From contig JBAZMS010000001.1 in NCBI GenBank assembly GCA_041649555.1, positions 119,219 through 183,218 on the forward strand: 64,000 nt of DNA, read 5' to 3'. Of this stretch, positions 6,763-64,000 are shown one piece after another; the stretch's first letter is position 1; the number at the start of each line of letters is the position of its first letter. A program made the translations under genes and the position numbers. The stretch comes from Candidatus Micrarchaeia archaeon (GTDB taxonomy: Archaea; Micrarchaeota; Micrarchaeia; Anstonellales; Bilamarchaeaceae). The notes under the pieces are model-generated. The model had not been told where the DNA came from. It ran no database searches and saw nothing but the letters and a program-made list of their open reading frames with translations.

Positions 6763-6813
6763 CCAAACTTATAAAAAACTATATGTTTGGTTGATTGTAA
6801 TTTTTCCTCAATT

Positions 6814-7638: not shown

Positions 7639-7705
7639 TCCAGGGCTTTCGTTCTAACACTAAAACCCCGAACTTATAACGCATTCCATATATTTAAATA
7701 ATGTT

Positions 7706-7721
7706 GGTGATAATTATCACC
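7706..7721. promoter_or_regulatory. Perfect 16-bp palindrome GGTGATAATTATCACC, candidate operator
   Basis: It lies between an AT-rich TATA-like box (ATATATTTAAATAA, about 7689-7702) and the ATG of the TrmB-family gene at 7724. Confidence 0.4.
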
Positions 7722-7723
7722 AT

Positions 7724-8485: not shown

Positions 8486-8504
8486 ATTTTAAATAATTAA
8501 TCCT

Positions 8505-9668: not shown

Positions 9669-9769
9669 TACTTAATAGTGTTTAGATATATTAATAAATG
9701 TGCTAGTTTTTAGCTCATATTTTTTTGTATCTGCATCCTTTTTATTATTTTCTTTACTTATTATATGTT

Positions 9770-10309
9770 ATGAAAATTCAATATTATGTGTTTGGAATCC
9801 TTTTGGTGCTTCTTTTTGCAGGATGCACAAGCCCCAAAGAAATAGTCTATCTTCCGATTGTAGAGCAGACTGTTGAAAAAGAATCATTTATGTCGGAAGT
9901 TCAGATCACTGATTACGAGCAAATAGAATTATCCGGAAATTATGCAATAATAACTACTGATAATGTCCAAATAAAAAATATAATATATGAATCTATTTTC
10001 AAAAATACCAAACAAGGTTCCGAGCTATCATTTGCAGGTGCAAAATGGACTTTGCAATCCCTTGACTGTTCCAAAAAACAAATTCTCATTTCAAATTCAC
10101 AAAACTCGATAACATTATCTGAATCTGAAAAATACCACAGCAACTGGGATGTTTTATTGGAGTGCGATGAAACTTATTTGTATGGGATTAAATTATCCTC
10201 ATCAGAAAGTATAACTGCAACTTCAGGAGATATGGTGTATATTCCTGATTCATCCCCTGGGTATAAATTGCAATACTTACAAAAAGGAGAATTTAAACTT
10301 GCAAACTAA
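9770..10309 (+). CDS. Putative lipoprotein (179 aa)
   Basis: MKIQYYVFGILLVLLFAGCTSPKE is a signal peptide with lipobox LFAG|C. ATG at 9770 is preferred over the upstream alternative start at 9725. Confidence 0.6.
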   Translation: MKIQYYVFGILLVLLFAGCTSPKEIVYLPIVEQTVEKESFMSEVQITDYEQIELSGNYAIITTDNVQIKNIIYESIFKNTKQGSELSFAGAKWTLQSLDCSKKQILISNSQNSITLSESEKYHSNWDVLLECDETYLYGIKLSSSESITATSGDMVYIPDSSPGYKLQYLQKGEFKLAN

Positions 10310-10386
10310 CCTTTTCCTTTTTAAATTTTTTTATCTAATTATCTCAAGATAAACTATAAAAAGAAATTAATTTATGAGGTGTAATA

Positions 10387-12372
10387 ATGATTGATTCAAC
10401 ATTATTTGGTTTTATTTCAGGATTTTTAGTATTGCTTTATGCATTATTTCTTGCATTTAAGGTAAACAAGGCTCCAAACGGAGATATAAAAATGAATGAT
10501 ATTGCAAAAGCAATACAGGTAGGGGCAAATGCTTTTCTGAAAAGACAATATATGACAATTGTCCCAATAGTGATTATTCTTGCAGCAGTAATAGGCTATT
10601 TTATCGGATTGGATACTTCAATTTCCTTTGTTTTCGGAGTTATTCTTTCTGCACTTGCAGGCTATATCGGAATGCAGGTTTCAGTAAGGGCAAATGTCAG
10701 GGTTGCAGAAGGGGCAAAATCAGGACTTTCAAGAGCATTAGAACTTGCTTTTTCAGGAGGAGCAGTTACAGGAATGTCTCTTATAGGTCTTGGGCTTATG
10801 GGAGTTAGCTTTTTGTATTGGTATTTTGGAAGCCTGATTCCTTTAATCGGCTTTGGTTTTGGTGCATCGCTTATCTCTTTATTTGCAAGGGTTGGGGGAG
10901 GGATATACACCAAGGCAGCAGATGTTGGAGCTGACCTGGTTGGAAAAATTGAAAAAGGAATTCCAGAAGATGACCCAAGAAATCCAGCAGTAATTGCAGA
11001 TAATGTAGGGGATAATGTTGGAGACTGCGCAGGAATGGCAGCAGATGTTTTTGAATCTTTTGTTGTAACCATAATTGCAGCTATGATTATTGGTTCTTTT
11101 ACAAATAATTCCACTTTCATAGAACTTCCTTTATATATTGCATCAATTGGAGGGCTTTCAGGAATTATTGGTTCATTTTTTGTAAGGCTTGGAAAAGAAA
11201 AAAACATAATGGGTGCGTTTTATAAGGGAATTATTGCAGCCTCTATTGTAATGGCGATATCATCCTTTATTTATTTAAATTCATTATTTCCTTCTGACTA
11301 CTCACTTTTTATATCAGTGATGGTCGGAGTGGTTTTAACAGGGCTTATGTTTTTGGTAACTGAATATTATACCTCATATCAATATTCTCCGGTCAAACAG
11401 ATTGCAGAAAGCTCAAAAACAGGAGCAGGAACAAATCTAATTTCAGGTCTTGCAATTGGAATGCAGTCAACTGCGCTTCCATTAATCTTTGTAGTTTTAT
11501 CAATTGCAATCTCATATCATTTTGCCGGAATGTATGGAATCGCACTGGCAGCAGCAGCAATGCTTTCTTTGAGTGCAATTGTCATATCAGTCGATTCTTA
11601 TGGCCCGATTACAGATAATGCAGGAGGAATCGCAGAGATGTCTGGATTATCTTCAAAAGTAAGAACTATTACAGATGCTCTTGATGCAGTTGGAAATACA
11701 ACCAAGGCAACAACCAAAGGGTTTGCAATTGCAGGTGCAGCTCTTGGAGCGCTTGCATTGTTTGTTGCATTTGCAAATGATGCAGGGCTTGCAACAATTA
11801 ATCTTCTAAATCCAGCAGTAACTATCGGGCTTTTCATCGGAGCATTATTGCCGTTCCTTTTTTCAAGCTTTTTAATGACTGCAGTTGGAAAGGCGGCATT
11901 TGAAATAGTCGAGGAAGTAAGAAGACAATTTAAAACAATAAAAGGCCTTATGAGTGGAAAAGAAAAACCTGACTATGCAACATGTGTTGACATAAGCACA
12001 AAAAGTGCGCTAAGAGAACTTATCGTTCCAGGCCTTTTGGCAGTATTGACCCCATTGCTTATAGGTTATCTTCTTGGAGCAGAAGCATTGGCAGGCCTTT
12101 TGGCAGGAACAATTGCGTCCGGGTTTTTGCTTGCATTATTTATGTGCACTTCAGGTGCTGCATGGGATAATGGCAAAAAATATATTGAGCTTGGAAATTT
12201 TGGAGGCAAAGGCTCTGATGCGCACAAGGCGGCGATAGTAGGGGATACAGTTGGGGACCCGTTAAAAGATACTGCAGGGCCTGCATTAAATGCATTAATT
12301 AAGGTGGTAAATACAGTATCACTTGTATTTATTGGAGTAATTATGGCATATGGAATAACCCTTTTGGGTTAA
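10387..12372 (+). CDS. hppA: Membrane-bound H+/Na+-translocating pyrophosphatase
   Basis: Motifs GGGIYTKAADVGADLVGKIE, DPRNPAVIADNVGDNVGDCAGMAADVFES and GDTVGDPLKDTAGPALN. 661 aa, polytopic. Confidence 0.95.
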   Translation: MIDSTLFGFISGFLVLLYALFLAFKVNKAPNGDIKMNDIAKAIQVGANAFLKRQYMTIVPIVIILAAVIGYFIGLDTSISFVFGVILSALAGYIGMQVSVRANVRVAEGAKSGLSRALELAFSGGAVTGMSLIGLGLMGVSFLYWYFGSLIPLIGFGFGASLISLFARVGGGIYTKAADVGADLVGKIEKGIPEDDPRNPAVIADNVGDNVGDCAGMAADVFESFVVTIIAAMIIGSFTNNSTFIELPLYIASIGGLSGIIGSFFVRLGKEKNIMGAFYKGIIAASIVMAISSFIYLNSLFPSDYSLFISVMVGVVLTGLMFLVTEYYTSYQYSPVKQIAESSKTGAGTNLISGLAIGMQSTALPLIFVVLSIAISYHFAGMYGIALAAAAMLSLSAIVISVDSYGPITDNAGGIAEMSGLSSKVRTITDALDAVGNTTKATTKGFAIAGAALGALALFVAFANDAGLATINLLNPAVTIGLFIGALLPFLFSSFLMTAVGKAAFEIVEEVRRQFKTIKGLMSGKEKPDYATCVDISTKSALRELIVPGLLAVLTPLLIGYLLGAEALAGLLAGTIASGFLLALFMCTSGAAWDNGKKYIELGNFGGKGSDAHKAAIVGDTVGDPLKDTAGPALNALIKVVNTVSLVFIGVIMAYGITLLG

Positions 12373-50097: not shown

Positions 50098-50160
50098 AAA
50101 GAAATATTTGAATTAAAATTAATAAACTTGCCGTTCTTTTAATGATTCTGCAAATTCTTT

Positions 50161-50545
50161 AACCCAAGTCCAATACAAGATTATAAAAGGGCCATATCAA
50201 ACAATAGAAAATTATTCTCCTAATTTCTTTCAAGTTGTATTAGTCTTTTTGTTTTGGGGTGACCACTTAGACCTTTTAACCCAAGTCCAATACAAGATTA
50301 TAAAAGGGCCATATCAAACAATAGAAAGTTGTTATCCTAATTTCTTTCAAGTTGTATTAGTCTTTTTGTTTTGGGGTGACCACTTAGACCTTTTAACCCA
50401 AGTCCAATACAAGATTATAACAGGGCCATATCAAACAATAGAAAGTTGTTATCCTAATTTCTTTCAAGTTGTATTAGTCTTTTTGTTTTGGGGTGACCAC
50501 TTAGACCTTTTAACCCAAGTCCAATACAAGATTATAAAAGGGCTA
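50161..50545. repeat. Tandem direct repeat, 117-bp unit x 3.3 copies
   Basis: Unit starts (AACCCAAGTCCAATACAAG...) at 50161, 50278, 50395 and 50512, an exact 117-nt period. Copies 2 and 3 differ at one position (AAAAGGG vs AACAGGG). Copy 1 differs in an 8-nt patch. The fourth copy is truncated after 34 nt, next to the RNase P RNA 3' end. Confidence 0.95.
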
Positions 50546-50546
50546 G

Positions 50547-50758
50547 TGATGGGAAGCATAGTCTGCCTTCTGTGTGGTTAGGCAACATTCGACTAAGCGG
50601 CGCAAAGGCCTTGCATACCACAGGCAATTCAAAAGCCGTTTCATCCTCAGAGAGGTAATCGTTTCTGTTCTTTTGAATCCGCCCTTAAGGCGTTGCCTGC
50701 ATAAAGGTATGGGCAGAACTTCCTCAGAAGAACTCCGTGAGTTGCCTGCTTCCCATCA
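50547..50758 (-). ncRNA. rnpB: RNase P RNA, unusually compact (about 212 nt)
   Basis: On the minus strand, the P1 5' strand UGAUGGGAAGC pairs with GCUUCCCAUCA, and the P2 strand AGGCAAC pairs with GUUGCCU. A P3 hairpin is present. A CR-I-like GAGGAAGUUCUGCCCAUACC compares with bacterial GAGGAAAGUCCGGGCUCCAUAGG. A CR-V-like ACAGAAGGCAGACUAU-P1' compares with ACAGAACCCGGCUUAU-P1'. P4 forms as UCUGCC/GGCAGA. P5 forms as CAUACC/GGUAUG, with nested helices between its strands. Confidence 0.75.
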
Positions 50759-50870: not shown

Positions 50871-52235
50871 ATGCACATCTGCAATGAGGATATATTGGAT
50901 TTAATACAACAAGGAAAAACAAATGAACTAGTTAAATTAGGAAGCAGAGTAGTAAAACCCATGATATCATTATTATCACATTCAAGTATGAAAGTTAGAA
51001 ATGGATGTATCGAAGCACTAGCAGAAATAGCGAAAACAGATGAGACCACATTTCAAAGACTAATTGAGGAATTAAACACTCCACGCTTAAACGTTGAACA
51101 ATATATACATGTCAAAAGAGGTTGCATATATGCGTTGGGCCTGGTAGGTGATAAAAGAGCGGCAAAATCTTTGATAATATCTCTTTTACACGGTTCAGAT
51201 GATATTAGAAAAGCCTGTGCAGAAGCATTAGGTTCAATAGGAAATCAAAAAGCAGTGAGTGCATTATTAATACACGCATCGTCAAATCGCTATTTTGACA
51301 TCAGACAAGCATGTGTGATGGCATTAATACATATAGGGAAAAAAGATAGGCACAGTTCCTATGAATTAATTAATGAATTGAATACCAATAGTTCTCTTAG
51401 TATAAAATCTATCTGCGCACGAGTATTAGGGATGATAGGAGAACGCAGGGCAGTAGATGCATTAATAGAAGGATTAAAAAATTCAGATGAGAATGTCCGG
51501 ATATCATGTGAAAAATCTTTAATATTAATAGCAAAGTCTAATGAGAAGACCTTCCAGAGACTAATTAAAGAATTGAAAACCAATCGAAATCGTAAAATTA
51601 AAGAAACCTGTGCAGATGCGCTGGGAATAATAGGGGATAAAAGGGCCGTGGACGTTTTGATAGAATCACTGGATGATTTTTATCGTTTTAGTAGGGAAGC
51701 CGAAGTAACAGTGATAAATGCATTGGGTTTAATAGGGGATCCCAAAGCAGTTACGCCCTTAATAAGAATATTGAAAAGAGATATAAAGAAGACCTCACCG
51801 AACAGCCAGAAGAAAGCCAATAAAGCATTGGTAAACATAGCAAAATTGGATAAAGTTACTTTCTATCTATTAATTAGTGGATTGTTGCCAATAGGAAAAA
51901 ACAATACAGAAGATTGTATAGGAATATTAACGGAAAACACAGATGAAAAAGGATCATGTTTTATAAAAATAATCTGTGAAAGGAGTGAAGAATGTGCATT
52001 AGAAATAGGAATGGAAAAAACCTTGGCAACCATCAAAGAATACATAGGATTCATAAAAGATTATTATACCAAAGAAGAACTAAAAGAAATCCAAATCAGG
52101 TTATATTCCTTCTACAGAAAAACATTTGAAGAAGAATCTAGTTCAAGAATAAAAATGGATTTACCTAAACTAGAGATAAAACCACCAAAGAGAGGCCCTG
52201 AAATATGTGCCAAATTATTGAGGGTAGGATCATGA
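50871..52235 (+). CDS. HEAT-repeat (PBS-lyase type) paralogue A, 454 aa
   Basis: Has the family N-module ...DILDLIQQGKTNELVKLG, multiple ALGxIGDxRAVxxLI/DxxVRxxC repeats, and the family C-module ...GMEKTLATIKEYIGFIKDYYTKEELKEIQIRLYSFYRKTFE...MDLPKLEIKPPKRGPEICAKLLRVGS. Confidence 0.8.
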   Translation: MHICNEDILDLIQQGKTNELVKLGSRVVKPMISLLSHSSMKVRNGCIEALAEIAKTDETTFQRLIEELNTPRLNVEQYIHVKRGCIYALGLVGDKRAAKSLIISLLHGSDDIRKACAEALGSIGNQKAVSALLIHASSNRYFDIRQACVMALIHIGKKDRHSSYELINELNTNSSLSIKSICARVLGMIGERRAVDALIEGLKNSDENVRISCEKSLILIAKSNEKTFQRLIKELKTNRNRKIKETCADALGIIGDKRAVDVLIESLDDFYRFSREAEVTVINALGLIGDPKAVTPLIRILKRDIKKTSPNSQKKANKALVNIAKLDKVTFYLLISGLLPIGKNNTEDCIGILTENTDEKGSCFIKIICERSEECALEIGMEKTLATIKEYIGFIKDYYTKEELKEIQIRLYSFYRKTFEEESSSRIKMDLPKLEIKPPKRGPEICAKLLRVGS

Positions 52236-53296
52236 TTACAAAAGAAGAAGTATTAAAATTAATACAACAAGGAAAAACTGAAGAACTAGTTGCTCTAGGT
52301 CCAGAAGCATATGATACTCTTTTCAGGGGGCTTGCAAATGAATTTCCATCAAGAAGATCTACTTGTTGCAGGGCATTAGTAGAAATTGCCAAAAAAGACC
52401 AAGATGTTTTTGAAAGGTTAATGTCAGATACTTCAGGAAATTATAGTTATACCTCTGTACAACTTAGGATCAAAAAATGCCATCTGTGGATCTTAGGCGA
52501 AGTTGGCGACACTAGAGTAGTCCCATACCTTTTCTCTTTTCTGGACCGTTCGCCCCATGAGTTTGAGGAGAGTATCTCTATTGCACTGGCAAAAATAGCA
52601 AGAACAAACGAAGAAACCTTCCAACGCTTAATTAATGAAATCCTGCATATTAAAGACCGGAAGATAAAAGCTCAATGCAGTTGTATCAGGGCATTATGTT
52701 TATTGAAGGATTCCAGGACATCAGAAGTATTGATCAAGACATTTTCAAGTTCTTTTGATTCTGCTGTTCTAGGCTTATGTGAAAAAACATTGGCAGAAAT
52801 AGCAAAAACAGATGAAAATACTTTAGAACTCTTGATTCAGACATTAAAAAATAATTTAGATCCGAATGTTAAGTTTCACTGTGCAATGGCATTAGGAACC
52901 ACAAACAGAGCAGATTTAATCGATATATTAGTGACTATGTCATTTATAGACAAAGATCTAGATCTTAAGTTTGCATGCACAAGAGCTTTGGGAAATATAA
53001 AAGATCCAAGGGGTCTTGCTTTCAAGAAAGTTATCTATGACAAAGACAAAGATTATGCATTAAAGATGGGAATAGAAAAAACCAGAGCAACCATAAAAGA
53101 ATATCTAGAACTTATAAAAAATTATTATTCTAAAGAAAGGGTAGGTGCGATTAAAATTGAATTACATTCCTTTTTTAGAGAGGTATTTGAAAAGGCAACA
53201 GACTTGAAGCCATGTATGGATTTACCTGAACTAAAGATAAAACCACCAAAGAGAGGCCCTGAAATATGTGCCAGATTAATGACGGTAAGAGTATGA
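52232..53296 (+). CDS. HEAT-repeat paralogue B, 354 aa
   Basis: ATGA overlap with A. Starts MITKEEVLKLIQQGKTEELVALG and ends MDLPELKIKPPKRGPEICARLMTVRV. The start is set to MITK by analogy with paralogues D and F. Confidence 0.8.
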   Translation: MITKEEVLKLIQQGKTEELVALGPEAYDTLFRGLANEFPSRRSTCCRALVEIAKKDQDVFERLMSDTSGNYSYTSVQLRIKKCHLWILGEVGDTRVVPYLFSFLDRSPHEFEESISIALAKIARTNEETFQRLINEILHIKDRKIKAQCSCIRALCLLKDSRTSEVLIKTFSSSFDSAVLGLCEKTLAEIAKTDENTLELLIQTLKNNLDPNVKFHCAMALGTTNRADLIDILVTMSFIDKDLDLKFACTRALGNIKDPRGLAFKKVIYDKDKDYALKMGIEKTRATIKEYLELIKNYYSKERVGAIKIELHSFFREVFEKATDLKPCMDLPELKIKPPKRGPEICARLMTVRV

Positions 53297-54522
53297 TTAC
53301 AAAAAAAGAAGTATTAGAGTTAATACAACAAGGAAAAACTGAAGAATTGATTTCATTAGGACCTAAAATAGCAGAGCCTCTATTAGCCATATTAGAATAT
53401 TCAGATCTCCCTGAAATTCATATGATTGCAAGCGTATTGGCTGAACTGGCAAAAAAATATGAATGCATCTTTCAGCGACTAACCAAGGAGCTGAATTTCA
53501 AAAAATTCAAGAATAATTTAAATCTCAGGATAGGTTGTGCAGAAGCATTAGGAAAAACAGCATCCCCTGTAGCAGTCATTTTTCTTCTTGACAGCTTAGG
53601 ATGCGACCCAGACCCCAACGTCCGAATCTTATGTGCGAAAGCCTTAGGAGAGATAGGAGATCCAAGAGCAGTAGATGGATTAAAGAAAAGTATCTATGAT
53701 TATGAGTATGTTAATAGGGCGTCCGTTTCCGCGTTGAAAAGGATAGGAACCCAGAAGGCACTTAATTCATTAGCCTGGAAATTAAGGTCTGAAAATATCC
53801 TATTCGATATCTGTGAAGAGGCTCTTATAACCACCGGTGGTTTGAAGGTATTACAAGCATTAATACATAGCATGGGCATCATGCATAATGGAAATCCATC
53901 TCATCGTGACAGCTGTGTAAAAATCTTTACAGAATTGGGCAAAAAAGATGAAATTTTTTTTCAGGGTTTGATCCATGAATTTGAAAATAATCAGAATTGG
54001 GTCGTTAGAGAAATATGTGCAAGAGCATTTGAACTTATAAAAAACCCAAAAGCAGTAAAAGTATTAATAGAAGGATTAAAGGATAATCGTGTGGAGGTCA
54101 AATTAGCGTGCATCTCTGCATTAGGTTCAATCGGAGGTCCTGGCGTAATTGATTTGTTAATAATCCATTTAGCAGACAGCTCCCTTGGTTTTAAATGCGC
54201 AAAAGCACTGGAAAATATAAAAGATCCAAGAGGTCTGCACTTCAAAAAAATAATTTATGACCGCGCAGAGAGTTATGAATCCGTATGTTATATATCAAAA
54301 ATAGGAATAGAAAAAACCCGGGTAATAATTCTTGAATATCTAGAAATGATAAAAGACCATTATCCGAAAGAGAAACTAGCTAAAATCAAAATCAACTTGT
54401 TCTCATTTTACAGAAGAGCGTTCAACTCTACTTCTAGACCACCAATGGAGTTACCTATCTTTGCCGTTAAACCTAAAAAGGTCGGTCCTAGGATATGTGC
54501 TAGATTAACGGTTGTAATATGA
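53293..54522 (+). CDS. HEAT-repeat paralogue C, 409 aa
   Basis: ATGA overlap with B. Starts MITKKEVLELIQQGKTEELISLG, has HEAT repeats, and ends in a more divergent tail MELPIFAVKPKKVGPRICARLTVVI. Confidence 0.8.
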   Translation: MITKKEVLELIQQGKTEELISLGPKIAEPLLAILEYSDLPEIHMIASVLAELAKKYECIFQRLTKELNFKKFKNNLNLRIGCAEALGKTASPVAVIFLLDSLGCDPDPNVRILCAKALGEIGDPRAVDGLKKSIYDYEYVNRASVSALKRIGTQKALNSLAWKLRSENILFDICEEALITTGGLKVLQALIHSMGIMHNGNPSHRDSCVKIFTELGKKDEIFFQGLIHEFENNQNWVVREICARAFELIKNPKAVKVLIEGLKDNRVEVKLACISALGSIGGPGVIDLLIIHLADSSLGFKCAKALENIKDPRGLHFKKIIYDRAESYESVCYISKIGIEKTRVIILEYLEMIKDHYPKEKLAKIKINLFSFYRRAFNSTSRPPMELPIFAVKPKKVGPRICARLTVVI

Positions 54523-55349
54523 TTACAAAAAAAGAAGTATTAGAGTTAATACAACAAGGAAAAACAAATGAATTAGTTAAATTAGGAAGCAGAGCAGTAA
54601 AACCCATGATATCATTATTATCACATTCAAGTATAAAAGTTAGAAATGGATGTATCGAAGCACTAGCAGAAATAGCGAAAACAGATGAAAATACTCTCCA
54701 GAGACTAATTCAAGAATTAAAAACTAATAAAAAATGTAAAACTAGGATAGGTTGTGCAGATGTATTAGGTTTTATACGGGATTCAAGAGTAGCAGAACCG
54801 TTAATAAAGGAATTAAAAACTAGTCGAGATTGGCTCGTTGGACGAAGTTGTGCAATTTCGCTAAGTCGGATAATAGACCCAAAAGCAGTAAAAGTATTAA
54901 TAGAAGGATTAAAGGATGAGGATTCAGATGTTAGAAAACCGTGCGCAGCTGCATTAGGTATAATTGGGGATATAACGGCAGTAGACTTTCTAATCTTAGG
55001 ATTAACGGATAATAATGTTAATCATCCTTTTGCACATGCATTAGAAAATATAAACGATCCAAGAGGTCTTGCTTTCAAGAAAGTTATCTATGACAAAGAC
55101 AAGGATTATGCATTAAAGATAGGAATAGAAAAAACCAGAGCAACCATAAAAGAATATCTAGAACTTATAAAAAATCATTATTCTAAAGAAAGGATAGGTG
55201 AAATTAAAGTTGAGTTATATATCTTTTACAGAAAAGTATTTGAAAAGGCAACAGACTTGAAGCCATGTATGAAGTTACCTGAACTAAAGATAAAACCACC
55301 AAAGAGAGGCCCTGAAATATGTGCCAGATTAATGACGGTAAGGGTATGA
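54519..55349 (+). CDS. HEAT-repeat paralogue D, 276 aa
   Basis: ATGA overlap with C. Starts MITKKEVLELIQQGKTNELVKLG and ends MKLPELKIKPPKRGPEICARLMTVRV. Confidence 0.8.
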   Translation: MITKKEVLELIQQGKTNELVKLGSRAVKPMISLLSHSSIKVRNGCIEALAEIAKTDENTLQRLIQELKTNKKCKTRIGCADVLGFIRDSRVAEPLIKELKTSRDWLVGRSCAISLSRIIDPKAVKVLIEGLKDEDSDVRKPCAAALGIIGDITAVDFLILGLTDNNVNHPFAHALENINDPRGLAFKKVIYDKDKDYALKIGIEKTRATIKEYLELIKNHYSKERIGEIKVELYIFYRKVFEKATDLKPCMKLPELKIKPPKRGPEICARLMTVRV

Positions 55350-55519
55350 TTACAAAAGAAGAAGTATTAAAATTAATACAACAAGGAAAAACTGAAGAAT
55401 TGATTTCATTATGACCTAAAATAGAGTTGCCCCAGTTAAGCATCAAAAAACCAAAGCATCCATATAAGATATATTATCCTTCAAAAAATTCGCATTTAGC
55501 TCAAACATTAATAAACTAA
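55346..55519 (+). pseudogene. Collapsed HEAT-family paralogue: N-module fused to a degenerate C-tail, interrupted by an in-frame TGA
   Basis: ATGA overlap with D. Reads MITKEEVLKLIQQGKTEELISL, then TGA (55412-55414; paralogue C has GGA Gly at this position), then in frame PKIELPQLSIKKPKHPYKIYYPSK..., which resembles the family tail ELPELKIKPPKRGPEI. Confidence 0.7.
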
Positions 55520-55563
55520 CACTTTAAAAATCTTTTTATATTAATTATATTAGGTGTAATTTT

Positions 55564-56640
55564 ATGAATTCAGCCAATAACAATTGTGTAATGCGAGAAT
55601 TAAATCCGCCTACTTTGGCAAATGGAAGTTATAGACGGACGAGGGGAGGAATTTTTATTCCAGAAAGGAATGTTCTGTTAGACACCCTGAAAAAAACAAT
55701 AGTTCCACCAGATAAAAAGCTAAATTATATCCCTTATGGTGATGAACTTAATTCGCTAGAAATAGCACAGAAAACAGGACAGGCTGTTCTTTTTGCAGGT
55801 CCAACAGGAGTTGGAAAAAGTATGCTTGCCCTGAAATATGCTCAAAATACTGGCCTACCCTTTCTTTATTCCACATGCGATCCGGATAAGACGCAGGGCC
55901 AATTAATGGGAAAGCCAAATTTATTATTTTCTGTAGTTGAATTGGATGGAAAGCCCTTTGTAATCAGCAATCAGGTTTTTATGCCCTCAAATATTTCTAT
56001 TGCTGGTCTTGCTGGAGAAAAGGTTATAATTTTTATAGACGAACTCCATAAACTAAGAAAGGATGTTGATGTATTATTCCACCCTCTTTTACAGGAGAGA
56101 ATAGTGAACTTGTCTGATCACTTAGGTCCAGGAGAGATTTATAATTTACATCCCGAATCTCTCATAATCTTTTCTTTGAATCCTTATTACGGCGACAGTG
56201 GAATTGAAAAGGTCGGCCCTGCGATGCGACAAAGAGTCAAGACACTCTATTTTCCGATGATTACTGATGAAAATAAAATTTTTGAAATTGTAAAGGCAAA
56301 TGTTGATGGTTATGAAAATTTGGCAAAGGATAAACAGGAGACATTTAAACGGATAGTTCTTATGAGCATGGCTATTGCTAGAATTTATCTTGAATACAAA
56401 AAACAGGGAACTACGAATCAGGATGATTTAACATTAAAAAATGAGTTAAAAAATAGTCTTCCTTTAATTAATGAAGCGCCTTCACCACGATTACTTGTTA
56501 ATGTTGCCAAGTGTATAGTAGCAGGCCAGAATCCTCGCGATGCATTGATAGAAGGACTTTTTAATGCAATAACCAATGACTTTGGTTTGACTACAAATGG
56601 ATTTTTAACCCAGGCAATGTCATGGTATAATATCAGATGA
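55564..56640 (+). CDS. MoxR-class AAA+ ATPase, CbbQ/NorQ/GvpN-like (AAA_5)
   Basis: Walker A FAGPTGVGKSM, Walker B VIIFIDELH, sensor-1 IFSLNP, Arg-finger region GPAMRQRV, sensor-2 SPRLL. 358 aa. Own TATA-like (CTTTTTATATTA) and AGGTG upstream. Confidence 0.85.
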   Translation: MNSANNNCVMRELNPPTLANGSYRRTRGGIFIPERNVLLDTLKKTIVPPDKKLNYIPYGDELNSLEIAQKTGQAVLFAGPTGVGKSMLALKYAQNTGLPFLYSTCDPDKTQGQLMGKPNLLFSVVELDGKPFVISNQVFMPSNISIAGLAGEKVIIFIDELHKLRKDVDVLFHPLLQERIVNLSDHLGPGEIYNLHPESLIIFSLNPYYGDSGIEKVGPAMRQRVKTLYFPMITDENKIFEIVKANVDGYENLAKDKQETFKRIVLMSMAIARIYLEYKKQGTTNQDDLTLKNELKNSLPLINEAPSPRLLVNVAKCIVAGQNPRDALIEGLFNAITNDFGLTTNGFLTQAMSWYNIR

Positions 56641-56652
56641 TGGTTGTCTTCA

Positions 56653-59283
56653 ATGTCCAAATTAAAGGAAAAACTAACTGGAAAAATAGTTCCTTTTAAA
56701 CCTGTTAAACCTAAAAATGATCCTCTTCTCGAGGAGTTTGATAAAGTAAGATTATGTATGGATGCAGCAGTATCTAGATTTGGAGAATTAATTTTTGAGG
56801 CCAAAGAAGAAGAAAAAAAGAAGGAAATGAAAGAAAACTTTCCTGTTTTAAAGAAATTAATCAATTCTCTTTTATCAGGAGACAAAGAATCACAAGACAG
56901 GTTGCTGTTTTTTGCCCATTGCATGGTCGAACTGAATTCCTCCGGCCATTATATCTCTAGGGATTATCTGATTGAAAATGCACTAACTATTCTAAGTCAC
57001 AGTGCGTGGAAGGTAAGCCAATTGCAATATTGCCTCTCTGAATTTCAGAGCGATATAACCAGTTATTTTTTTATGACATATTTTCTCCCTAAAATTGGTG
57101 AAAGGGTTTATTGGAATACCTTTGTCTCTGAATTGAATAATTACGAAGAGGATTATGTCTATAAATGTTTGGCCGAAGATCTTTTAGCAGAGTATCTTAT
57201 ACATTTTAATGAAACTGTAATGCTGGCAGAGGAAGCAGTTTATAAATATGGATTAGTGCGATACCCTCAGTTAATTTTTGGAAAAGATATGCCTATTGAA
57301 ATAGGAAAAGAAGATAGTTTTCACACAAATTCCAGCGGCAAAATAGTAATCCCGCCATATGTTAATACTTTTCAAAGCAAGGAGGAAAATTCACTAGTAT
57401 ATCTAATCCTTTTTCATCATGAGATGGGGCACCATCTTTTCAGAACCTTTGATGTGAATCTGGACCCCAGGATTTTCGATTATCAGGCTTTCAGAGTTAG
57501 ATATCTCAGGCATACCACGCATAAGGGCCAGCTTGAAATTACTGTTGAAAGAGAAGGAACGGAAATAAAAGTAAATTCATTTGCAAAACTACTCTACCTT
57601 GTCAAATATCCCATATTACTACATTTTCTTCACAATATTGTTGATGACGGCAGGATAGATGCCAACAATATCGAGCGCTTTTCCGGGATAGCTGAAGACT
57701 ACAGGCAAATTGTGGAAAAACATTTTGAAAAAAGATGCAAGCTTGAACATTCTGATCTGGGAACTTTTCTTGAGGCCATGCTCCAGTACGCAATTGTTGG
57801 AAAGACAAGAAACGAGGTTCCGGCCGGTCTGAAAGCAAAGTTTAACAAGGCAAGAAAGATAATGAATGAGATGGATTTTGGTCCTGAAACTGATGGAACA
57901 GATTCAATGAATGTTGCAATAAAACTTTATAATCTTGTATTAGAGGATTTTGAGCAGTTGGTAAAGAATCTTTCAGAAAGAGAACTACCAGAATCGATGA
58001 TGAATTCTTCTACTGACTCGGGCAAAGCTCCAAACCTTATTATGAAAGATCCTCCTTGCAAGAAACAAAAAAGGAGGCCGGGGGTAAATCCGTTCGATTT
58101 GATCAATAATGATTCAGAACCCGGGGATAATAATGGGGAGGATGTTCCTTTGGAACCTACCTCCGAACCAAACAAAAAGAAAAATCCAGAAAATAGCAGT
58201 GGTGAAGAAGGCGAAGAGGAAAACAAACCCGGAAAAAAAAGCGATAAAAAACCAGAAGAAAATGATGATGAACCAAAAGCAGAAAATGGCAGTGGTGAAG
58301 AAGGCGAAAAGGAAAAAAAACCAGAAAAAACAGGAGACAATAATCCTGCAGGGGCAAATCCGTATGGGAATCTTAAAACAGGAGAGCAAGGTGACGCAAA
58401 TAGAAATGATCGAAACACTCCCACAATTTTCTATTATGATGGTTGGGACGGATTCAAGCAAGTATTTGAAGAACACAGGGTAGAGCAATTGCATGCAGAC
58501 GGCAAACTCCTTACATACGATCCTGCAGAAGAGGAAAAAATAAGGAGAACATTCAGGAAATATGCCCCAAAGACAGGAGTTCTGGTTAGAGGAACTGAAG
58601 ATGGAGACATTGACCCGGAATTACTATCTCAATATTTTCTCGATCTGAGGGCAGGAAAACTCGAGGACATGAATTTTTATCAGAGAGTATTATATGAGCA
58701 GAGGGATGTTGCAACAATGGTTCTTGTAGATTTAAGCGGAAGTGCCCTAATTGTAAAACCGCAGATACTTGATTCCTGCGCAGTACTCGGAGTGGCAAGC
58801 GATACCCTCCATGATCCGTTGCTTATTGCAGGATTCAGCGGAGATCTTGGCGATGAGAAATTTATTGTTATGAAGGGCATTCATGAAAAAGACATCACTT
58901 CCAGCGAATACAGCTCTAATACTCCATTAGGGGGTCCATTAAGGCATTGTAGTTATTTGATGGGAAATGTCTATGAATTAAAATGCAAGGGATTTAAACA
59001 GCTTTTTGTGATAACTGACGGGGCTGCCAATGTTGGAAAAAATCCAGTAGAAGATGCGAAAAAGGCAGTTGAAGAGGCTTGGAAAAAGTACAGGATCAAT
59101 GTTATGGCATTCGGGATATTAAATCAAGATGGTCCAGTATCTTATAGCGAGATGGAAAAATACCTTGAATCTGTATTTGGGGCTGGAAATTATTTTATAA
59201 TAACTGATAAAGATGTTGACAACAAATTTTTGCATCATTACTTCGAGAGATATTACCGGAAACAGGTAAATAAAGTGAGGTAA
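56653..59283 (+). CDS. CbbO/NorD-like von Willebrand factor A protein with an HExxH-containing N-domain and an acidic repeat linker
   Basis: NorD/CbbO-like FYYDGWD motif. DLRAGKLEDMNFYQRVLYEQRDVATMVLVDLSGS contains a MIDAS DxSxS, and ...FVITDGAANVG follows. HHEMGHH lies at 57415-57435. A 31-aa E/K/G-rich repeat starts at 58189 and 58282. ATG at 56653; a TTG at 56644 is also possible. Confidence 0.8.
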   Translation: MSKLKEKLTGKIVPFKPVKPKNDPLLEEFDKVRLCMDAAVSRFGELIFEAKEEEKKKEMKENFPVLKKLINSLLSGDKESQDRLLFFAHCMVELNSSGHYISRDYLIENALTILSHSAWKVSQLQYCLSEFQSDITSYFFMTYFLPKIGERVYWNTFVSELNNYEEDYVYKCLAEDLLAEYLIHFNETVMLAEEAVYKYGLVRYPQLIFGKDMPIEIGKEDSFHTNSSGKIVIPPYVNTFQSKEENSLVYLILFHHEMGHHLFRTFDVNLDPRIFDYQAFRVRYLRHTTHKGQLEITVEREGTEIKVNSFAKLLYLVKYPILLHFLHNIVDDGRIDANNIERFSGIAEDYRQIVEKHFEKRCKLEHSDLGTFLEAMLQYAIVGKTRNEVPAGLKAKFNKARKIMNEMDFGPETDGTDSMNVAIKLYNLVLEDFEQLVKNLSERELPESMMNSSTDSGKAPNLIMKDPPCKKQKRRPGVNPFDLINNDSEPGDNNGEDVPLEPTSEPNKKKNPENSSGEEGEEENKPGKKSDKKPEENDDEPKAENGSGEEGEKEKKPEKTGDNNPAGANPYGNLKTGEQGDANRNDRNTPTIFYYDGWDGFKQVFEEHRVEQLHADGKLLTYDPAEEEKIRRTFRKYAPKTGVLVRGTEDGDIDPELLSQYFLDLRAGKLEDMNFYQRVLYEQRDVATMVLVDLSGSALIVKPQILDSCAVLGVASDTLHDPLLIAGFSGDLGDEKFIVMKGIHEKDITSSEYSSNTPLGGPLRHCSYLMGNVYELKCKGFKQLFVITDGAANVGKNPVEDAKKAVEEAWKKYRINVMAFGILNQDGPVSYSEMEKYLESVFGAGNYFIITDKDVDNKFLHHYFERYYRKQVNKVR

Positions 59284-59344
59284 TGCAATGGTGAGCTTTT
59301 ATGATATCTAATATTGGATTCATTTTCAGACTTAGGGGTTGAAT

Positions 59345-60514
59345 ATGACCACAGAAATATCAAAATTAATGGAACTTGGGAAAAAAGAAGAATTAGTTAA
59401 ACTAGGTCCTGAAGCAGTAGAATCTATCATACCCCGGTTATCCAGTTCGTATTTACATCTCAAAGAGTATCGCATAGAAGCATTGGCAGAAATAGCAAAA
59501 ACAGATGAAGGTGGTTTCCAGAGACTAATTAAAGAATTAGTAACTAATGAAAATTGGAGGGTTAAAGCAGGTTGTGCAGAAGCATTAGGTCTAATAGGAG
59601 ATCTAAGAGCAGTAGGAGCATTAATAGAAGGATTAAAAGATAAAGATTTAGATGTTAGAGAAGCCTACATGAAAGCCTTAGTAGAAATAGCAAAAACAGA
59701 TGAAGGTGGTTTCCAAAAACTAATAATTAAATTAGGAATTGGAGTGGTAACTGATTTAATAAAGGAGCTAAAATATTATCATGAGTCTGCAATTAAAGAA
59801 TATATCATACAAACATTAGCCGAAATAGCAAAAACAGATGAAAAAACCTTCCAGATACTACTTAAAGAATTAGAAACTAATGAAAGTTGGTGGATTAAAA
59901 TAGATTGTGCAAAAGCACTAGGTCTAATAGGAGATCCAAGAGCAGTAGGAACATTAATAGAAGGATTAAAAGATAAAGATTCAGATGTTAGAAAAGCCTG
60001 CATGAAAGCCTTAGTAGAAATAGCAAAAACAGATGAAAATACTTTAGAACTCTTGATTCAGACATTAAAAAATACTTTAGGTCTGAATGTTAAGTTTCAC
60101 TGTGCAAAAGCATTAGGGCAGATAGGAGATCCAAGAGCAGTAGGAGTATTAATAGAAGTATTAAAGGATGAAGATTCAGATGTTAGTGAATCCTGCGCAA
60201 AAGCATTAGAAAATATAAACGATCCAAGAGGTCTGCACTTCAAAAAAATAATTTATAATAAAAGTGAAGATTATGCTCTAGAACTAGGAATAGAAAAAAC
60301 TAGAGCAACCATAAAAGAATATCTAGAACTTATAAAAAATCATTATTCTAAAGAAAGAATAGGTGAAATTAAAGTTGAGTTATATATCTTTTACAGAAAA
60401 GTATTTGAAAAGGCAACAGACTTGAAGCCATGTATGGATTTACCTAAACTAGAGATAAAACCACTAAAGAGAGGCCCTGAAATATATGCCAAATTAATGG
60501 GGATAGGATTATGA
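59345..60514 (+). CDS. HEAT-repeat paralogue E, 389 aa
   Basis: N-module variant MTTEISKLMELGKKEELVKLG. Four near-identical ALxEIAKTDE..FQ.LIKEL..NE.W..K..CA.ALGLIGD.RAVG.LIEGLKDKD.DVR units. Family C-module ending MDLPKLEIKPLKRGPEIYAKLMGIGL. Confidence 0.8.
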   Translation: MTTEISKLMELGKKEELVKLGPEAVESIIPRLSSSYLHLKEYRIEALAEIAKTDEGGFQRLIKELVTNENWRVKAGCAEALGLIGDLRAVGALIEGLKDKDLDVREAYMKALVEIAKTDEGGFQKLIIKLGIGVVTDLIKELKYYHESAIKEYIIQTLAEIAKTDEKTFQILLKELETNESWWIKIDCAKALGLIGDPRAVGTLIEGLKDKDSDVRKACMKALVEIAKTDENTLELLIQTLKNTLGLNVKFHCAKALGQIGDPRAVGVLIEVLKDEDSDVSESCAKALENINDPRGLHFKKIIYNKSEDYALELGIEKTRATIKEYLELIKNHYSKERIGEIKVELYIFYRKVFEKATDLKPCMDLPKLEIKPLKRGPEIYAKLMGIGL

Positions 60515-61569
60515 TTACAAAAGAAGTATTAGAGTTAATACAACAAGGAAAAACAAATGAACTAGTTAAATTAGGAAGCATAGTAGTAGAGCCCATGATA
60601 TTATTATTATCAGATTCAGGTATAGAAGTCAGGAACGGATGTATTGAGGCACTGGCAGAAATAGCAAAAACAGATGAAAATACTTTAAAACTCTTGATTC
60701 AGACATTAAAAAATAATTTAGATCCGAATGTTAAGTTTCACTGTGCAAAAGCATTAGGGCAGATAGAGGATCCAAAAGCAATAAGCGCATTAATTTTTAT
60801 GATGGAATATGGTGGATGCAATCTTTCTGAAGTTTGTTTGGACATATTAGTTAAACTTGCAAGAAGAAATAAGGATGTTGTTGATCAATTAATCATTGAA
60901 TTTGAAAATCCCCCCCCCATAATCATAAGAGGCTATGGGTGTTGCGCAGAAGCCTTGGGCGAAATAGGAGATAAAAAAGCAACAGCTGTTTTATTTAATG
61001 GATTGCGTAATTATTTTATGATAAGAGAATTATGTGCTAATGCCTTGGCAAAAATAGCAGAAAGAGACGAAGAAACATTTGAATTATTAGTTGAAGGATT
61101 AAATGACTCTACTCTTTTTGTTAGAAAGGCCTGCGCAGGAGCTTTGGGCAAAATAAAAGATAAAAGAGCAGTAGATCCCCTGATAAGAGGCTTGCAAGAT
61201 CCTGAACCTGAATTTAAACAAGCCTGTGCTAATGCACTCGAGAACATAAATGATCAAAGAGGCGTACATTTCAAGAGAATTATTCATGATAGATTTTATG
61301 ATATCATTCCTGGTTCTGCGCAGCATTATGCATTAAAAATAGGAATGCAAAAAACCCTTGAGATTATTAGGGAATATTTAGAATTAATAAAAAAAGATTA
61401 TCCAAAAGGAGAAATAAAAGAGATTCGGGTAAGTTTGTTTGATTTTTACAGAAAGGCATTTGAAAAAAGTTCTGCGCACAGAGTTAGGTTGGAATTACCT
61501 GAATTAAAGATAAAACCACCAAAGAGAGGTCCTGAAATATGTGCCAGATTAATGAGGATAGGATTATGA
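60511..61569 (+). CDS. HEAT-repeat paralogue F, 352 aa
   Basis: ATGA overlap with E. Starts MITKEVLELIQQGKTNELVKLG and ends LELPELKIKPPKRGPEICARLMRIGL. Confidence 0.8.
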   Translation: MITKEVLELIQQGKTNELVKLGSIVVEPMILLLSDSGIEVRNGCIEALAEIAKTDENTLKLLIQTLKNNLDPNVKFHCAKALGQIEDPKAISALIFMMEYGGCNLSEVCLDILVKLARRNKDVVDQLIIEFENPPPIIIRGYGCCAEALGEIGDKKATAVLFNGLRNYFMIRELCANALAKIAERDEETFELLVEGLNDSTLFVRKACAGALGKIKDKRAVDPLIRGLQDPEPEFKQACANALENINDQRGVHFKRIIHDRFYDIIPGSAQHYALKIGMQKTLEIIREYLELIKKDYPKGEIKEIRVSLFDFYRKAFEKSSAHRVRLELPELKIKPPKRGPEICARLMRIGL

Positions 61570-62777
61570 TTACAAAAGAAGAAGTACTAAGGCTAGTAAA
61601 ACAAGGAAAAACAAATGAATTAGTTAAATTAGGAAGCATAGTAGTAGATATACTAATTGAAAGTTTAAACTCTAACATTGATACCAAACATAGTATAACA
61701 GCCTTAGTAGAAATCGCAAAAACAGATGAAAATACTTTTCAAAGGCTAATTAAGGAATTGGAGAATAATACCTCTTGGAAGAGTAGAAGATACATTGCCC
61801 AATCATTAGGTTTACTAAAAGATAAAAGAGCAGTAAAAGCATTAGTAACAAGATTAGAAGACGAAAATGAAAATTTCCTTGTTAGAGAATCATGTGCAGA
61901 ATCCCTAGGAAAAATTAGGGATCCAAAGGCAGTAGATCCCCTAATAGAACTATTAAAAATCCACATGGGGGACCTTATGGAATCCTGCACAGAAGCATTG
62001 GCAGAAATAGCAAAAACAAATAGAAATACTTTTCGAAGAATAACTACTGAATTATTAAATAGTGATTCTGAAAATGTCAAGAAAGCCTGTGTAATGGCAC
62101 TAGACCTCATAAATGATTTAAGAGCAGTAGATTATTTGATAAAAGGATTAAAAGATAAAGATTCGGATGCTAGCCCAAGTATTATACATTTACTGGCCAA
62201 AATCGCAAGGAAAGATGACAGTACTTTCCAAAAACTCATAAAAGAATTATTGACCAATAATCTTCAATCTGTTAGGTTTTGCTGTGCAGTAGCATTAAAA
62301 TGTGTGGGGGATAGAATAGTAGAAAAAAATATAGAAAAAAGATTATTTGAGCTTTCGAAAAAAAATTCTTACACGAAAGGAGAATTTGCAAAAATAAAAC
62401 TTGAGATATATAAAATTTACTTTGAAATAACTGGGCACAAAAGTTTTCTAAGAGTAATGAATGAATATTTGTCTATAATACGGGATAAGACTTCAAAGAA
62501 AGAGTTTGCAAAAACAAAACTTGAGCTGTATAGGGCTCATGTAACTATAGTGGGATCAGAAAAAACATTAGAAACCATCAAAGGATATCTAGAACTTATA
62601 AAAAACGATTATTCCAAAGAAGAACTAGATAAAATTAAATTAAACTTATATTCTTTTTATAGAATGGTGTTTGAGTGTGAATCAGCCATAAGAGGAAAAA
62701 TGGATTTACCTAAACTAGAGATGAGACCACCAAAGAGAGGTCCTATAATACATGCTCAATTGAGGGTTGCAACATGA
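61566..62777 (+). CDS. HEAT-repeat paralogue G, 403 aa, with a triplicated C-terminal helical unit
   Basis: ATGA overlap with F. Starts MITKEEVLRLVKQGKTNELVKLG. Has three successive copies of the ...EFAKIKLEIY.IY... unit. Ends MDLPKLEMRPPKRGPIIHAQLRVAT. Confidence 0.8.
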   Translation: MITKEEVLRLVKQGKTNELVKLGSIVVDILIESLNSNIDTKHSITALVEIAKTDENTFQRLIKELENNTSWKSRRYIAQSLGLLKDKRAVKALVTRLEDENENFLVRESCAESLGKIRDPKAVDPLIELLKIHMGDLMESCTEALAEIAKTNRNTFRRITTELLNSDSENVKKACVMALDLINDLRAVDYLIKGLKDKDSDASPSIIHLLAKIARKDDSTFQKLIKELLTNNLQSVRFCCAVALKCVGDRIVEKNIEKRLFELSKKNSYTKGEFAKIKLEIYKIYFEITGHKSFLRVMNEYLSIIRDKTSKKEFAKTKLELYRAHVTIVGSEKTLETIKGYLELIKNDYSKEELDKIKLNLYSFYRMVFECESAIRGKMDLPKLEMRPPKRGPIIHAQLRVAT

Positions 62778-64000
62778 TAAACTCGGAAGAAACGTGGGGC
62801 GTATTAGAATTAATACGCAAAGGAAAAACCAAGAAACTAGTTAAATTAGGAAGAGAGGCAGCAGATATTTTAATAGCAGAATTGCAGAATCCCCATTTTG
62901 TTCATAAACAAACTTGTATAAACTCCTTAGTAGAAATAGCAAAATCCGATGAAGAAACTTTTCAGAGACTAATTGAAGAATTGGAAAATAGTAAAAACTT
63001 GAAAATTAAAGCAGGTTGTGCAAAAGCATTGGGTTTAACAGGGAATAGAAGGGCAACCACTGCATTAATAGAAGAGTTATGCAAAAATGATGGATCATCG
63101 TATCAATATTCTGATGTTAAAATAGCCTGCGCAGAAGCATTAGGCATGATGAGAGATAAACAAGCAATACCCTATTTGGTAAAGGAACTAAGGAATATGA
63201 ACCGTTCAGTTGGATTTGCCTGTATAAAATCCTTGGGAGAAATTGGAGGTCTGGCTGGGGCAGAAGCAATAATACAAAGATTAGAAGAGATAATAAATAT
63301 TTCAGGAATATGGGGAGATTTAGAAACAATTTGTAAAGAAACGCTAAGCAACATGGCTAAAAAAAATAAAGCCGTCCAGCAGTTTTTAATATATAAATTT
63401 GAGAATTCTGGTAATAACACAGTGAAAAATGTTTGCTTACAGGCGTTATGTCATATTGCTGATCCAAAACTTGCAGAATTTTATATAAAGAATTTAACTG
63501 GTCCTGCAGGTCCTGCTGTATATTGTGCAGAAGCATTAGGAAAAATAAAAGATAACAGAGCAATACCTTATTTATTAAATGGGCTAGAAAAAGAATATCA
63601 CGGTCTTAGAAGAGCCTGCGCAGAAGCATTAAAGAAAATAGGTGATCCAATAGCCGTAGATTATTTAATTAAACGATTGACAGACCTCCATCCTTCTGTT
63701 CGAAAAGCTTGTTCTGAAGCATTAAAGAAAATAGGTGATCCAAGAGGACTCTATTTTGAGAGAGTTATCTATGATGATGCAGGTGCTTTAAAGATCGGCA
63801 TGGATAACACCCTGAAAATTATTAAAGAATATCTTGATTTCATAGCAGATGAATATCCCGAGGAAAGAACAAGACAAATTAGACTAGGTTTATTTTTATA
63901 TTATAGAAGAATATTTGAAAAAGAATCCAGTTCAAGAATAAAAATGGAATTGCCTGAACTAAAAATAAGACCACCAGTGAAGGGCCCTATACTATATACT
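62774..64000 (+). CDS. HEAT-repeat paralogue H (3' end outside the window)
   Basis: ATGA overlap with G, and the frame is open for all 409 codons to the window edge. It is not in the ORF track because no stop is present. Reads MINSEETWGVLELIRKGKTKKLVKLG..., CAEALGKIKDNRAIPYL, CSEALKKIGDPRGLYFERVIYDD, ...MELPELKIRPPVKGPILYT. Confidence 0.8.
   Translation, partial: MINSEETWGVLELIRKGKTKKLVKLGREAADILIAELQNPHFVHKQTCINSLVEIAKSDEETFQRLIEELENSKNLKIKAGCAKALGLTGNRRATTALIEELCKNDGSSYQYSDVKIACAEALGMMRDKQAIPYLVKELRNMNRSVGFACIKSLGEIGGLAGAEAIIQRLEEIINISGIWGDLETICKETLSNMAKKNKAVQQFLIYKFENSGNNTVKNVCLQALCHIADPKLAEFYIKNLTGPAGPAVYCAEALGKIKDNRAIPYLLNGLEKEYHGLRRACAEALKKIGDPIAVDYLIKRLTDLHPSVRKACSEALKKIGDPRGLYFERVIYDDAGALKIGMDNTLKIIKEYLDFIADEYPEERTRQIRLGLFLYYRRIFEKESSSRIKMELPELKIRPPVKGPILYT

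Follow-up and report, generated by a model that had tools for sequence, protein, structure and literature searches.

Classical cases of concerted evolution include the duplicated tuf genes and the rRNA operons. Another group is formed by the antigenic-variation cassette loci, such as Neisseria pilE/pilS, Borrelia vlsE and Anaplasma msp2, in which conserved gene ends enclose a variable middle and segments are patched by gene conversion; these loci have one expression site and a set of silent donors. The locus described here lies on a stretch of 64,000 nucleotides from Candidatus Micrarchaeia archaeon (contig JBAZMS010000001.1; the whole stretch is called the window below) and consists of a tandem array of paralogous genes for HEAT-repeat proteins, named A to H, with an AAA+ ATPase gene and the gene of a large VWA protein set among them. 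Long blocks of nearly identical DNA are shared by genes of this array that are otherwise strongly diverged. This mosaic is very probably the outcome of repeated non-allelic homologous recombination within a chromosomal HEAT array of a DPANN Micrarchaeia-like archaeon.

Ectopic gene conversion in prokaryotic multigene families has been surveyed (PMC6053082). The array agrees with the surveyed cases in its short near-identical tracts within one genome, in the homogenised silent sites and in the incongruent trees of its segments. It differs in that its copies, at least eight diverged genes for repeat proteins, have not been kept uniform and have exchanged patches only, and in that one cassette has moved to a new repeat position. 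A search of the literature returned no report of such gene conversion in DPANN archaea. The phenomenon is a known one, the ordinary concerted or mosaic evolution of a tandem family, in a gene system that has not been described. The comparison with antigenic-variation loci, akin to the likeness to contingency or variable-surface loci drawn in the first-pass annotation of this DNA, goes less far. Unlike those loci, the array is an operon-like row of eight complete open reading frames (ORFs), and the only truncated copy in it is a remnant of 22 codons. All copies are complete and, judging from the layout, would be expressed together.

By their ORFs and Pfam matches, at least eight co-oriented paralogues of the HEAT_2/HEAT_PBS type follow one another on the forward strand from position 50871 to past position 64000, and the genes of the AAA_5 ATPase and of an 879-aa protein are inserted between paralogues D and E. 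Neighbouring genes of the array are joined by ATGA stop/start overlaps. The array reaches beyond the coordinates given in the first-pass annotation, since G and H extend it to the end of the window, and no further member of the family was found elsewhere in the 64 kb.

Shared tracts were sought by self-blastn of the region from 50 to 64 kb and with a repeat finder. The background identity between paralogues is about 55-70%, against 93-99% in the main tracts, which puts the blocks well outside anything expected by chance. Three blocks had been reported earlier, and a recount gave identical figures: A 50901-51043 and D 54546-54688 differ by 3 mismatches in 143 nt, B 52791-52886 and F 60653-60748 by 1 in 96 nt, and D 55141-55271 and E 60306-60436 by 1 in 131 nt. 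The related copy that had been placed in E near 60010-60100 was located by blastn at 60016-60117, with 95% identity to B 52795-52896. The repeat finder likewise recovered the junction of about 300 nt at all eight gene boundaries that had been named (51986, 53047, 54288, 55100, 60265, 61320, 62531 and 63775; families D1, D2 and D8). Blastn added four pairs that had not been listed before, namely the B/C junction 52993-53371 with the end of D and the remnant behind it (55046-55424, 93.7% over 379 nt), C 54196-54258 with E 60194-60256 (95%), C 54037-54084 with D 54870-54917 (96%), and a duplication inside E (59462-59704 with 59795-60037, 88%). The full limits of the principal tracts are given in Table 1. 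The one-repeat cassette shared by B, E and F is in register in B and E and displaced in F. Its distance from the C-terminus is about 165-168 codons in these two genes and 305 codons in F, so that an entire repeat unit has come to lie at another position in F.

Different segments of a gene have different closest relatives, as had been suggested earlier. Over the first 186 nt, identity is 82-89% among A, D and F and 47-73% in the remaining pairs; over the last 300 nt, it is 84-93% among B, D and E and 58-73% in the others. Paralogue D is itself a patchwork. Painting it in windows of 60 nt by best match gives F, A, a divergent stretch, B, E and again B. A three-way alignment resolves the last part: D equals B at 55070-55135, equals E at 55138-55237 with 1 mismatch (B has 12 there), and then equals B again. 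The simplest reading is that a tract of about 130 nt from E was copied into a B-like D, the direction being the one that the alignment suggests.

The divergence at silent sites gives the clearest contrast. The Nei-Gojobori proportion of synonymous differences (pS), taken in windows of 20 codons, is 0.6-0.9 over most of every pair and falls to 0.00-0.09 inside the tracts. Immediately 5' of the D/E tract, pS is 0.94 while the corresponding non-synonymous proportion (pN) is only 0.19. The protein has been kept there and the DNA has not, so selection at the protein level cannot explain the tracts. In a Sawyer-type test on the polymorphic sites of the codon alignment, 10 of the 28 pairs reached the minimum p value of 0.0005, and in a test of identical runs at third codon positions, again 10 of 28 pairs passed Bonferroni correction (10,000 permutations). 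Paralogue H showed no signal of exchange with any partner (p > 0.4) and serves as an internal negative control. Both the recombination tests and the divergence per segment therefore favour exchange, and the earlier proposal of recombination rather than simple duplication and divergence is borne out by the contrast in pS, the incongruence of the segments, the B/D/E patchwork and the permutations.

Two other origins were considered and rejected. Recent duplication of whole genes does not fit the saturation of pS that every pair shows over most of its length. The array is also not a target of a diversity-generating retroelement (DGR), because the mismatches are dominated by transitions rather than being adenine-specific, and no reverse transcriptase was found among the ORFs examined. 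Within the tracts, 95 of 127 mismatches are transitions (69 A/G and 26 C/T), in both directions.

Several tract edges coincide with a repeated motif. A motif of 23 nt that encodes AEIAKTDE occurs ten times; besides the copy in Table 1, it is found at 51024, 52796, 54669, 59489, 59684, 59822, 60017, 61710 and 62933. Five tract edges, belonging to the A/D, B/F, B/E and A/F tracts, lie on copies of this motif (51043, 52791, 54688, 60016 and 60653/60677). In F, the A/D-like 5' module, which runs to 60677, and the B/E-like cassette, which begins at 60653, overlap exactly within it. The second anchor of breakpoints is the gene junction, made up of the 3' module, the ATGA overlap and the 5' cap.

These observations suggest how the array may have evolved. 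Exchange seems to start where function keeps the DNA similar, at the junctions and also at the AEIAKTDE motif and a second motif, GDPRAV..LIEGLKD. Most events are probably short gene-conversion tracts of about 50-380 nt, and unequal exchanges would account both for the repeat that is duplicated inside E and for the incomplete gene start that follows D. The gene ends thereby stay alike, while whole repeat units are copied between paralogues and sometimes to another repeat position.

The remnant after D ends with a TGA that corresponds to GGA in paralogue C. The DNA that follows it (window 55346-55480 in all) encodes ELPQLSIKKPK, which resembles the C-terminal tail of the family, as if the body of a gene had been deleted.

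A second array of the same family was found at 6091-10872 of a 234-kb contig of the Joint Genome Institute (JGI; Ga0265297_10000146, locus L013), beside a thermosome gene. It has four members, P0018, P0017, P0016 and a 192-aa copy. The source run of the window, X1, is a landfill metagenome in which the window stands at about 16x and whose k=31 unitigs were used as an independent assembly. P0016 is present in this run at 100% identity, and a unitig common to two copies of the second array has a depth of 37, about twice that of the window. For these two reasons the second array probably belongs to the genome of the window, which would then hold about 12 paralogues. The 3' modules of the neighbours P0018 and P0017 share an exact stretch of about 222 nt, the youngest tract seen, and no block above 90% identity is shared between the two arrays. 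Exchange may thus occur more often inside an array than from one array to the other. The first-pass annotation had spoken of ongoing gene conversion or cassette exchange. The exchange stands; that it is still going on is suggested only by the spread of tract identities, from 88 to 99%, and by the exact tract in the second array.

Several observations weigh against an explanation by recombination. The null model of the permutations presumes that constraint is uniform over the length of a gene. In nearly every copy, the final 75 nt or so resemble one another at silent sites as well, and part of the junction signal may be constraint at the nucleotide level, for example from translational coupling, and not conversion. 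The X1 unitigs break at every shared block, and the pairing of left and right flanks is known from the assembly alone. Alternative joints were seen only in low-depth contigs of a second run, X2, and in one short contig, with no secure variant within the population. Finally, the paralogues at the syntenic loci of other DPANN archaea, described below, have no DNA-level similarity to one another. Conversion would thus be a feature of the young expansion in this lineage and not of the system as a whole.

The second of these points would also be expected from purifying selection on the proteins, or on an RNA or DNA signal, in the absence of recombination. Such selection would agree with the conserved protein ends and with a tail motif that is present in every HEAT protein of the syntenic loci, and the silent similarity of the last 75 nt could reflect translational coupling through the ATGA overlap. 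However, constraint on a protein does not fix silent sites, and one and the same segment can reach 97-99% identity in a single pair and stay at 55-65% in the rest. The B/E/F cassette and the A/D 5' tract encode stretches that are not conserved in other members of the family, and the three-way patchwork of D cannot come from constraint. With the main tracts already contradicting it, selection without recombination is extremely improbable as the source of the mosaic.

The next two points bear on the assembly, which might have been mis-threaded through repeats or have collapsed similar copies into a consensus. Joints of the kind expected from this do exist. In X2, a groundwater run with essentially the same strain at a depth of 3-5x, low-depth contigs pass through shared blocks from B to F (52826/60689, skipping 7.9 kb) and from D back to C (54876/54044), and these may be real recombinants or low-coverage unitig chimeras. 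In the second array, a short JGI contig (L010, from another sample) runs from P0018 straight into P0016 across the 222-nt exact repeat, without P0017; it reflects a deletion in that sample or else mis-threading by the assembler. The window itself fares better. Every X1 unitig that aligns with it does so at 100% identity. The unique parts have a depth of 13-17, equal to that of the flanking 49-kb unitig, which shows them to be single-copy parts of one genome and not strain variants strung together. The shared blocks have two to three times that depth, as expected if the copies add up, and no alternative letters were seen inside them in X1 save those that a third copy explains, which points to true identity of the copies of a block at the level of the reads. 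No exact repeat of the window is longer than 78 nt, below ordinary read length, and a block with two left and two right flanks is a mosaic under any pairing. A chimeric assembly is unlikely, and it is very improbable that an artefact of this kind accounts for the shared blocks.

Table 1. Genes, remnant, motif and shared tracts of the HEAT array, in window coordinates.
Feature	Position	Strand	Description	Basis
Paralogue A	50871-52235	+	454 aa; first gene of upstream sub-array	HEAT_2 1e-34, HEAT_PBS 1.9e-24
Paralogue B	52232-53296	+	354 aa counted from ATGA start	ORF, Pfam
Paralogue C	53293-54522	+	409 aa	ORF, Pfam
Paralogue D	54519-55349	+	276 aa; most mosaic copy	Painting, three-way alignment
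Paralogue-start remnant	55346-55414	+	22 codons (MITKEEVLKLIQQGKTEELISL), then TGA	Translation
MoxR-class AAA+ ATPase, NorQ/CbbQ/GvpN type	55564-56640	+	358 aa	Pfam AAA_5, CbbQ_C
Large VWA partner protein, NorD-like	56644-59283	+	879 aa	Motifs, family profile
Paralogue E	59339-60514	+	391 aa; internal duplication of 333-nt period	
Paralogue F	60511-61569	+	352 aa; 5' module A/D-like, B/E-like cassette from inside AEIAKTDE motif	
Paralogue G	61566-62777	+	403 aa	ORF, Pfam
Paralogue H	62774-64000	+	Cut by window edge; full length 415 aa (P0015)	
23-nt motif copy	60658-60680	+	GAAATAGCAAAAACAGATGA-like, encodes AEIAKTDE; one of ten copies	
5' tract	A 50893-51043	+	D 54538-54688, 96.7% over 151 nt; F 60527-60677, 88.7%, older level	pS 0.00-0.08
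Internal one-repeat cassette	B 52791-52896	+	F 60653-60758, 97%; E 60016-60117, 95%	
D/E tract	D 55137-55271	+	E 60302-60436, 1 nt differs; nested in B-like 3' module of D	
B 3' module, junction and C start	52993-53371	+	D 3' module and remnant 55046-55424, 93.7% over 379 nt	

The pair of genes between D and E has its own described relatives, the NorQ-NorD and CbbQ-CbbO systems. The ATPase matches Pfam AAA_5 (3e-11) and CbbQ_C and, in the PDB, NorQ (5e-12) and CbbQ (2e-10). The adjoining 879-aa protein has an N-terminal half with an HExGHH motif, then a linker rich in acidic residues and lysine, and at its C-terminal end a VWA domain whose metal ion-dependent adhesion site (MIDAS) is complete. 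An alignment with four orthologues showed that HExGHH is invariant, revealed the further motifs NxxDDxRxD and TDGTxSxN, and showed that the MIDAS residues D696, S698, S700, T760 and D792 are the same in all five proteins. Pfam and NCBIfam gave no match for the VWA protein of the window, and Pfam VWA was found in two of the five orthologues; a profile built from the five-sequence alignment matches NorD (9qhd_G) at 2.4e-10. A homologue search with the VWA protein returned two proteins only and was dominated by low-complexity words, and the AlphaFold2 model of its N-terminal half was unusable, with a predicted local distance difference test (pLDDT) score of 33. The linker contains an internal repeat of 93 nt (58182-58258 and 58275-58351, 81%).

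Taken from these domains and motifs, the pair is predicted to be a NorQ/NorD-like MoxR-VWA remodeller, and a peptidase-like role of the HExGHH half is possible. It shares with NorQ-NorD and CbbQ-CbbO the AAA_5 ATPase adjoining a large protein whose C-terminal half is NorD-like and has a complete MIDAS. It differs from them in the HExGHH half, in always lying within HEAT arrays, and in its lack of the usual partner, as no gene for a nitric oxide reductase or Rubisco was found in the window or at the syntenic loci.

The distribution of the system is narrow. Only 14 relatives of the ATPase were found in 5.8 billion protein clusters, and those with a name belong to DPANN archaea (Aenigmatarchaeota and Micrarchaeota). 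In three independent DPANN contigs (L002, L005 and L007), the same order of HEAT genes, ATPase, large protein and HEAT genes recurs, and the number of HEAT genes at the syntenic loci ranges from 3 to 10. Scans of GTDB representative genomes with the ATPase and with a profile of the 3' module yielded no relative. Look-ups of the exact products of G (with both possible starts), H and P0017 returned no match, and that of the ATPase returned one 4-kb unitig only. Literature searches that combined DPANN with HEAT paralogues or with MoxR brought up no account of HEAT arrays in a NorQ-NorD-like setting.

All eight HEAT proteins of the window, which are of the PBS-lyase type, score 59-119 bits with HEAT_2/HEAT_PBS, against a curated cut-off of 27.7 bits. 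The AlphaFold2 model of D, with a pLDDT of 85.6, shows a solenoid made entirely of helices as far as residue 244, and the last 32 residues are disordered. Its top Foldseek matches in the PDB are alphaRep binders, whose design rests on HEAT-like repeats of archaea, with E values of 3e-07 and weaker and 32-40% identity. The artificial alphaRep binders and their natural PBS-HEAT parents have been described (PMC3754942); they are the best structural matches and have the same 31-residue repeat, and the natural proteins of the array differ from alphaRep in two additions, a helical 3' module peculiar to the family and a basic tail that is disordered. A profile search with the 3' module, of 100 residues, matched 18 clusters among 1.84 billion representative proteins, mostly the window's own genes.

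The tail is conserved across loci. At five loci, every one of the 31 HEAT proteins (31/31) has a basic C-terminal tail with proline, of the form hP.hK.P.K...R, which is the disordered tail of the D model. In the proteins of L002, L005 and L007, the last 32 residues hold 6-13 K/R, and the remainder of the protein is unrelated at the DNA level. We infer that the HEAT proteins may be clients or adaptors of the AAA+/VWA machine and would dock to it through this tail.

A hydropathy scan found no signal peptide or membrane segment in any paralogue, and the products are predicted from the model to be soluble cytosolic alpha-solenoids. A reading of the genes as surface antigens was rejected on this model together with the scan. 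The likeness to contingency or variable-surface loci that had been noted earlier does not hold up: there are no silent cassettes, no export signal, and no recombinase, reverse transcriptase or simple-sequence switch nearby. No dedicated switch was found, the only tandem repeat being an extragenic array of 117 nt, although no scan was aimed at G-quadruplex (G4) motifs.

The whole locus may also be compared with the vWA-MoxR ternary conflict systems of multicellular bacteria (Kaur et al. 2020, PMC7159879). Both have a core of MoxR and vWA proteins and a variable third component; in the bacterial systems, superstructure-forming repeats of the HEAT/TPR type occur commonly and diversification is a recurrent feature. 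Those bacteria, however, have the repeats as part of the vWA protein itself, by fusion, and use VMAP, iSTAND, FtsH or a beta-propeller as third component. In the DPANN locus, this role would fall to a set of separate multi-copy HEAT proteins with a tail of their own, in which Pfam profiles detected only HEAT families. By analogy, the bacterial MoxR-vWA ternary systems may be regarded as the nearest described relatives in logic.

This comparison raises the question of whether the conversions are exploited. The HEAT proteins would then be a repertoire of binders or sensors for the AAA+/VWA machine, and shuffling would be selected because it yields new binding specificities, as a recombination-based counterpart of the DGR-diversified MoxR-vWA conflict systems or of plant NLR/LRR clusters. 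The idea draws on the alphaRep binder scaffolds as best fold match, on the whole repeat unit at a different repeat position in F, and on the bacterial ternary systems with HEAT/TPR repeats and DGR diversification (PMC7159879, PMC10907252). A restricted 3' module and a copy number that varies widely across DPANN loci are usual for genes of conflict or host interaction, and weak PADLOC matches to HEAT-ARM_XIII and OloA were obtained. Against this, positive selection is not evidenced, with pS saturated outside the tracts; most tracts lie on the conserved ends, so that the net effect looks homogenising; and the neighbours are housekeeping genes, with no effector domain, nuclease or toxin found and no repertoire differences seen between strains. 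Selected shuffling is therefore an improbable, though not a negligible, addition to recombination in the array. Similarly doubtful is the proposal of an undescribed DPANN three-part system, in which the NorQ-like AAA+ ATPase would work with a NorD-like VWA protein, whose conserved HExGHH half is possibly a peptidase, and with a repertoire of alphaRep-like binders, variable in size, that dock by their tails and are actively re-assorted in this lineage through gene conversion of cassettes. If it were true, such a system would gain new specificities, for example towards proteins of a host or a virus, and would be a recombination-driven analogue of the DGR-diversified MoxR-vWA systems.

The ten genes upstream of the array have housekeeping functions and include two aminoacyl-tRNA synthetases, an archease, a DHH protein and a cobalamin adenosyltransferase. 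No recombinase, reverse transcriptase or mobile element was found in the ORFs of the window and these ten genes. A TATA-like box lies about 45 nt 5' of paralogue A. Further upstream, an archaeal RNase P RNA (Rfam RF00373, 91 bits) occupies 50548-50757 on the minus strand; with 210 nt against 288 positions of the model, it is a reduced form. Its 3' end is abutted by the 117-nt tandem repeat, which spans 50158-50543 in 3.3 copies of 98% identity, lies outside genes about 330 nt 5' of gene A, and is absent from the rest of the window. At three junctions (52205, 53266 and 61539), an in-frame ATG (MCQI...) preceded by AGAGGA stands 27 nt 5' of the ATGA start, and the gene overlap there may be 31 nt and not 4.

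For annotation and binning, the locus is a reminder that arrays of this kind break in short-read assemblies and can be mis-threaded. It also exposes a conserved and unstudied neighbourhood, in which HEAT arrays with a shared tail surround a NorQ/NorD-like pair. In addition, it provides a clean DPANN example in which patchwise gene conversion can be quantified. The genomes of DPANN archaea are tiny and are expected to shed redundancy, yet about 12 paralogues of a single lineage-restricted family have probably been kept in this one.

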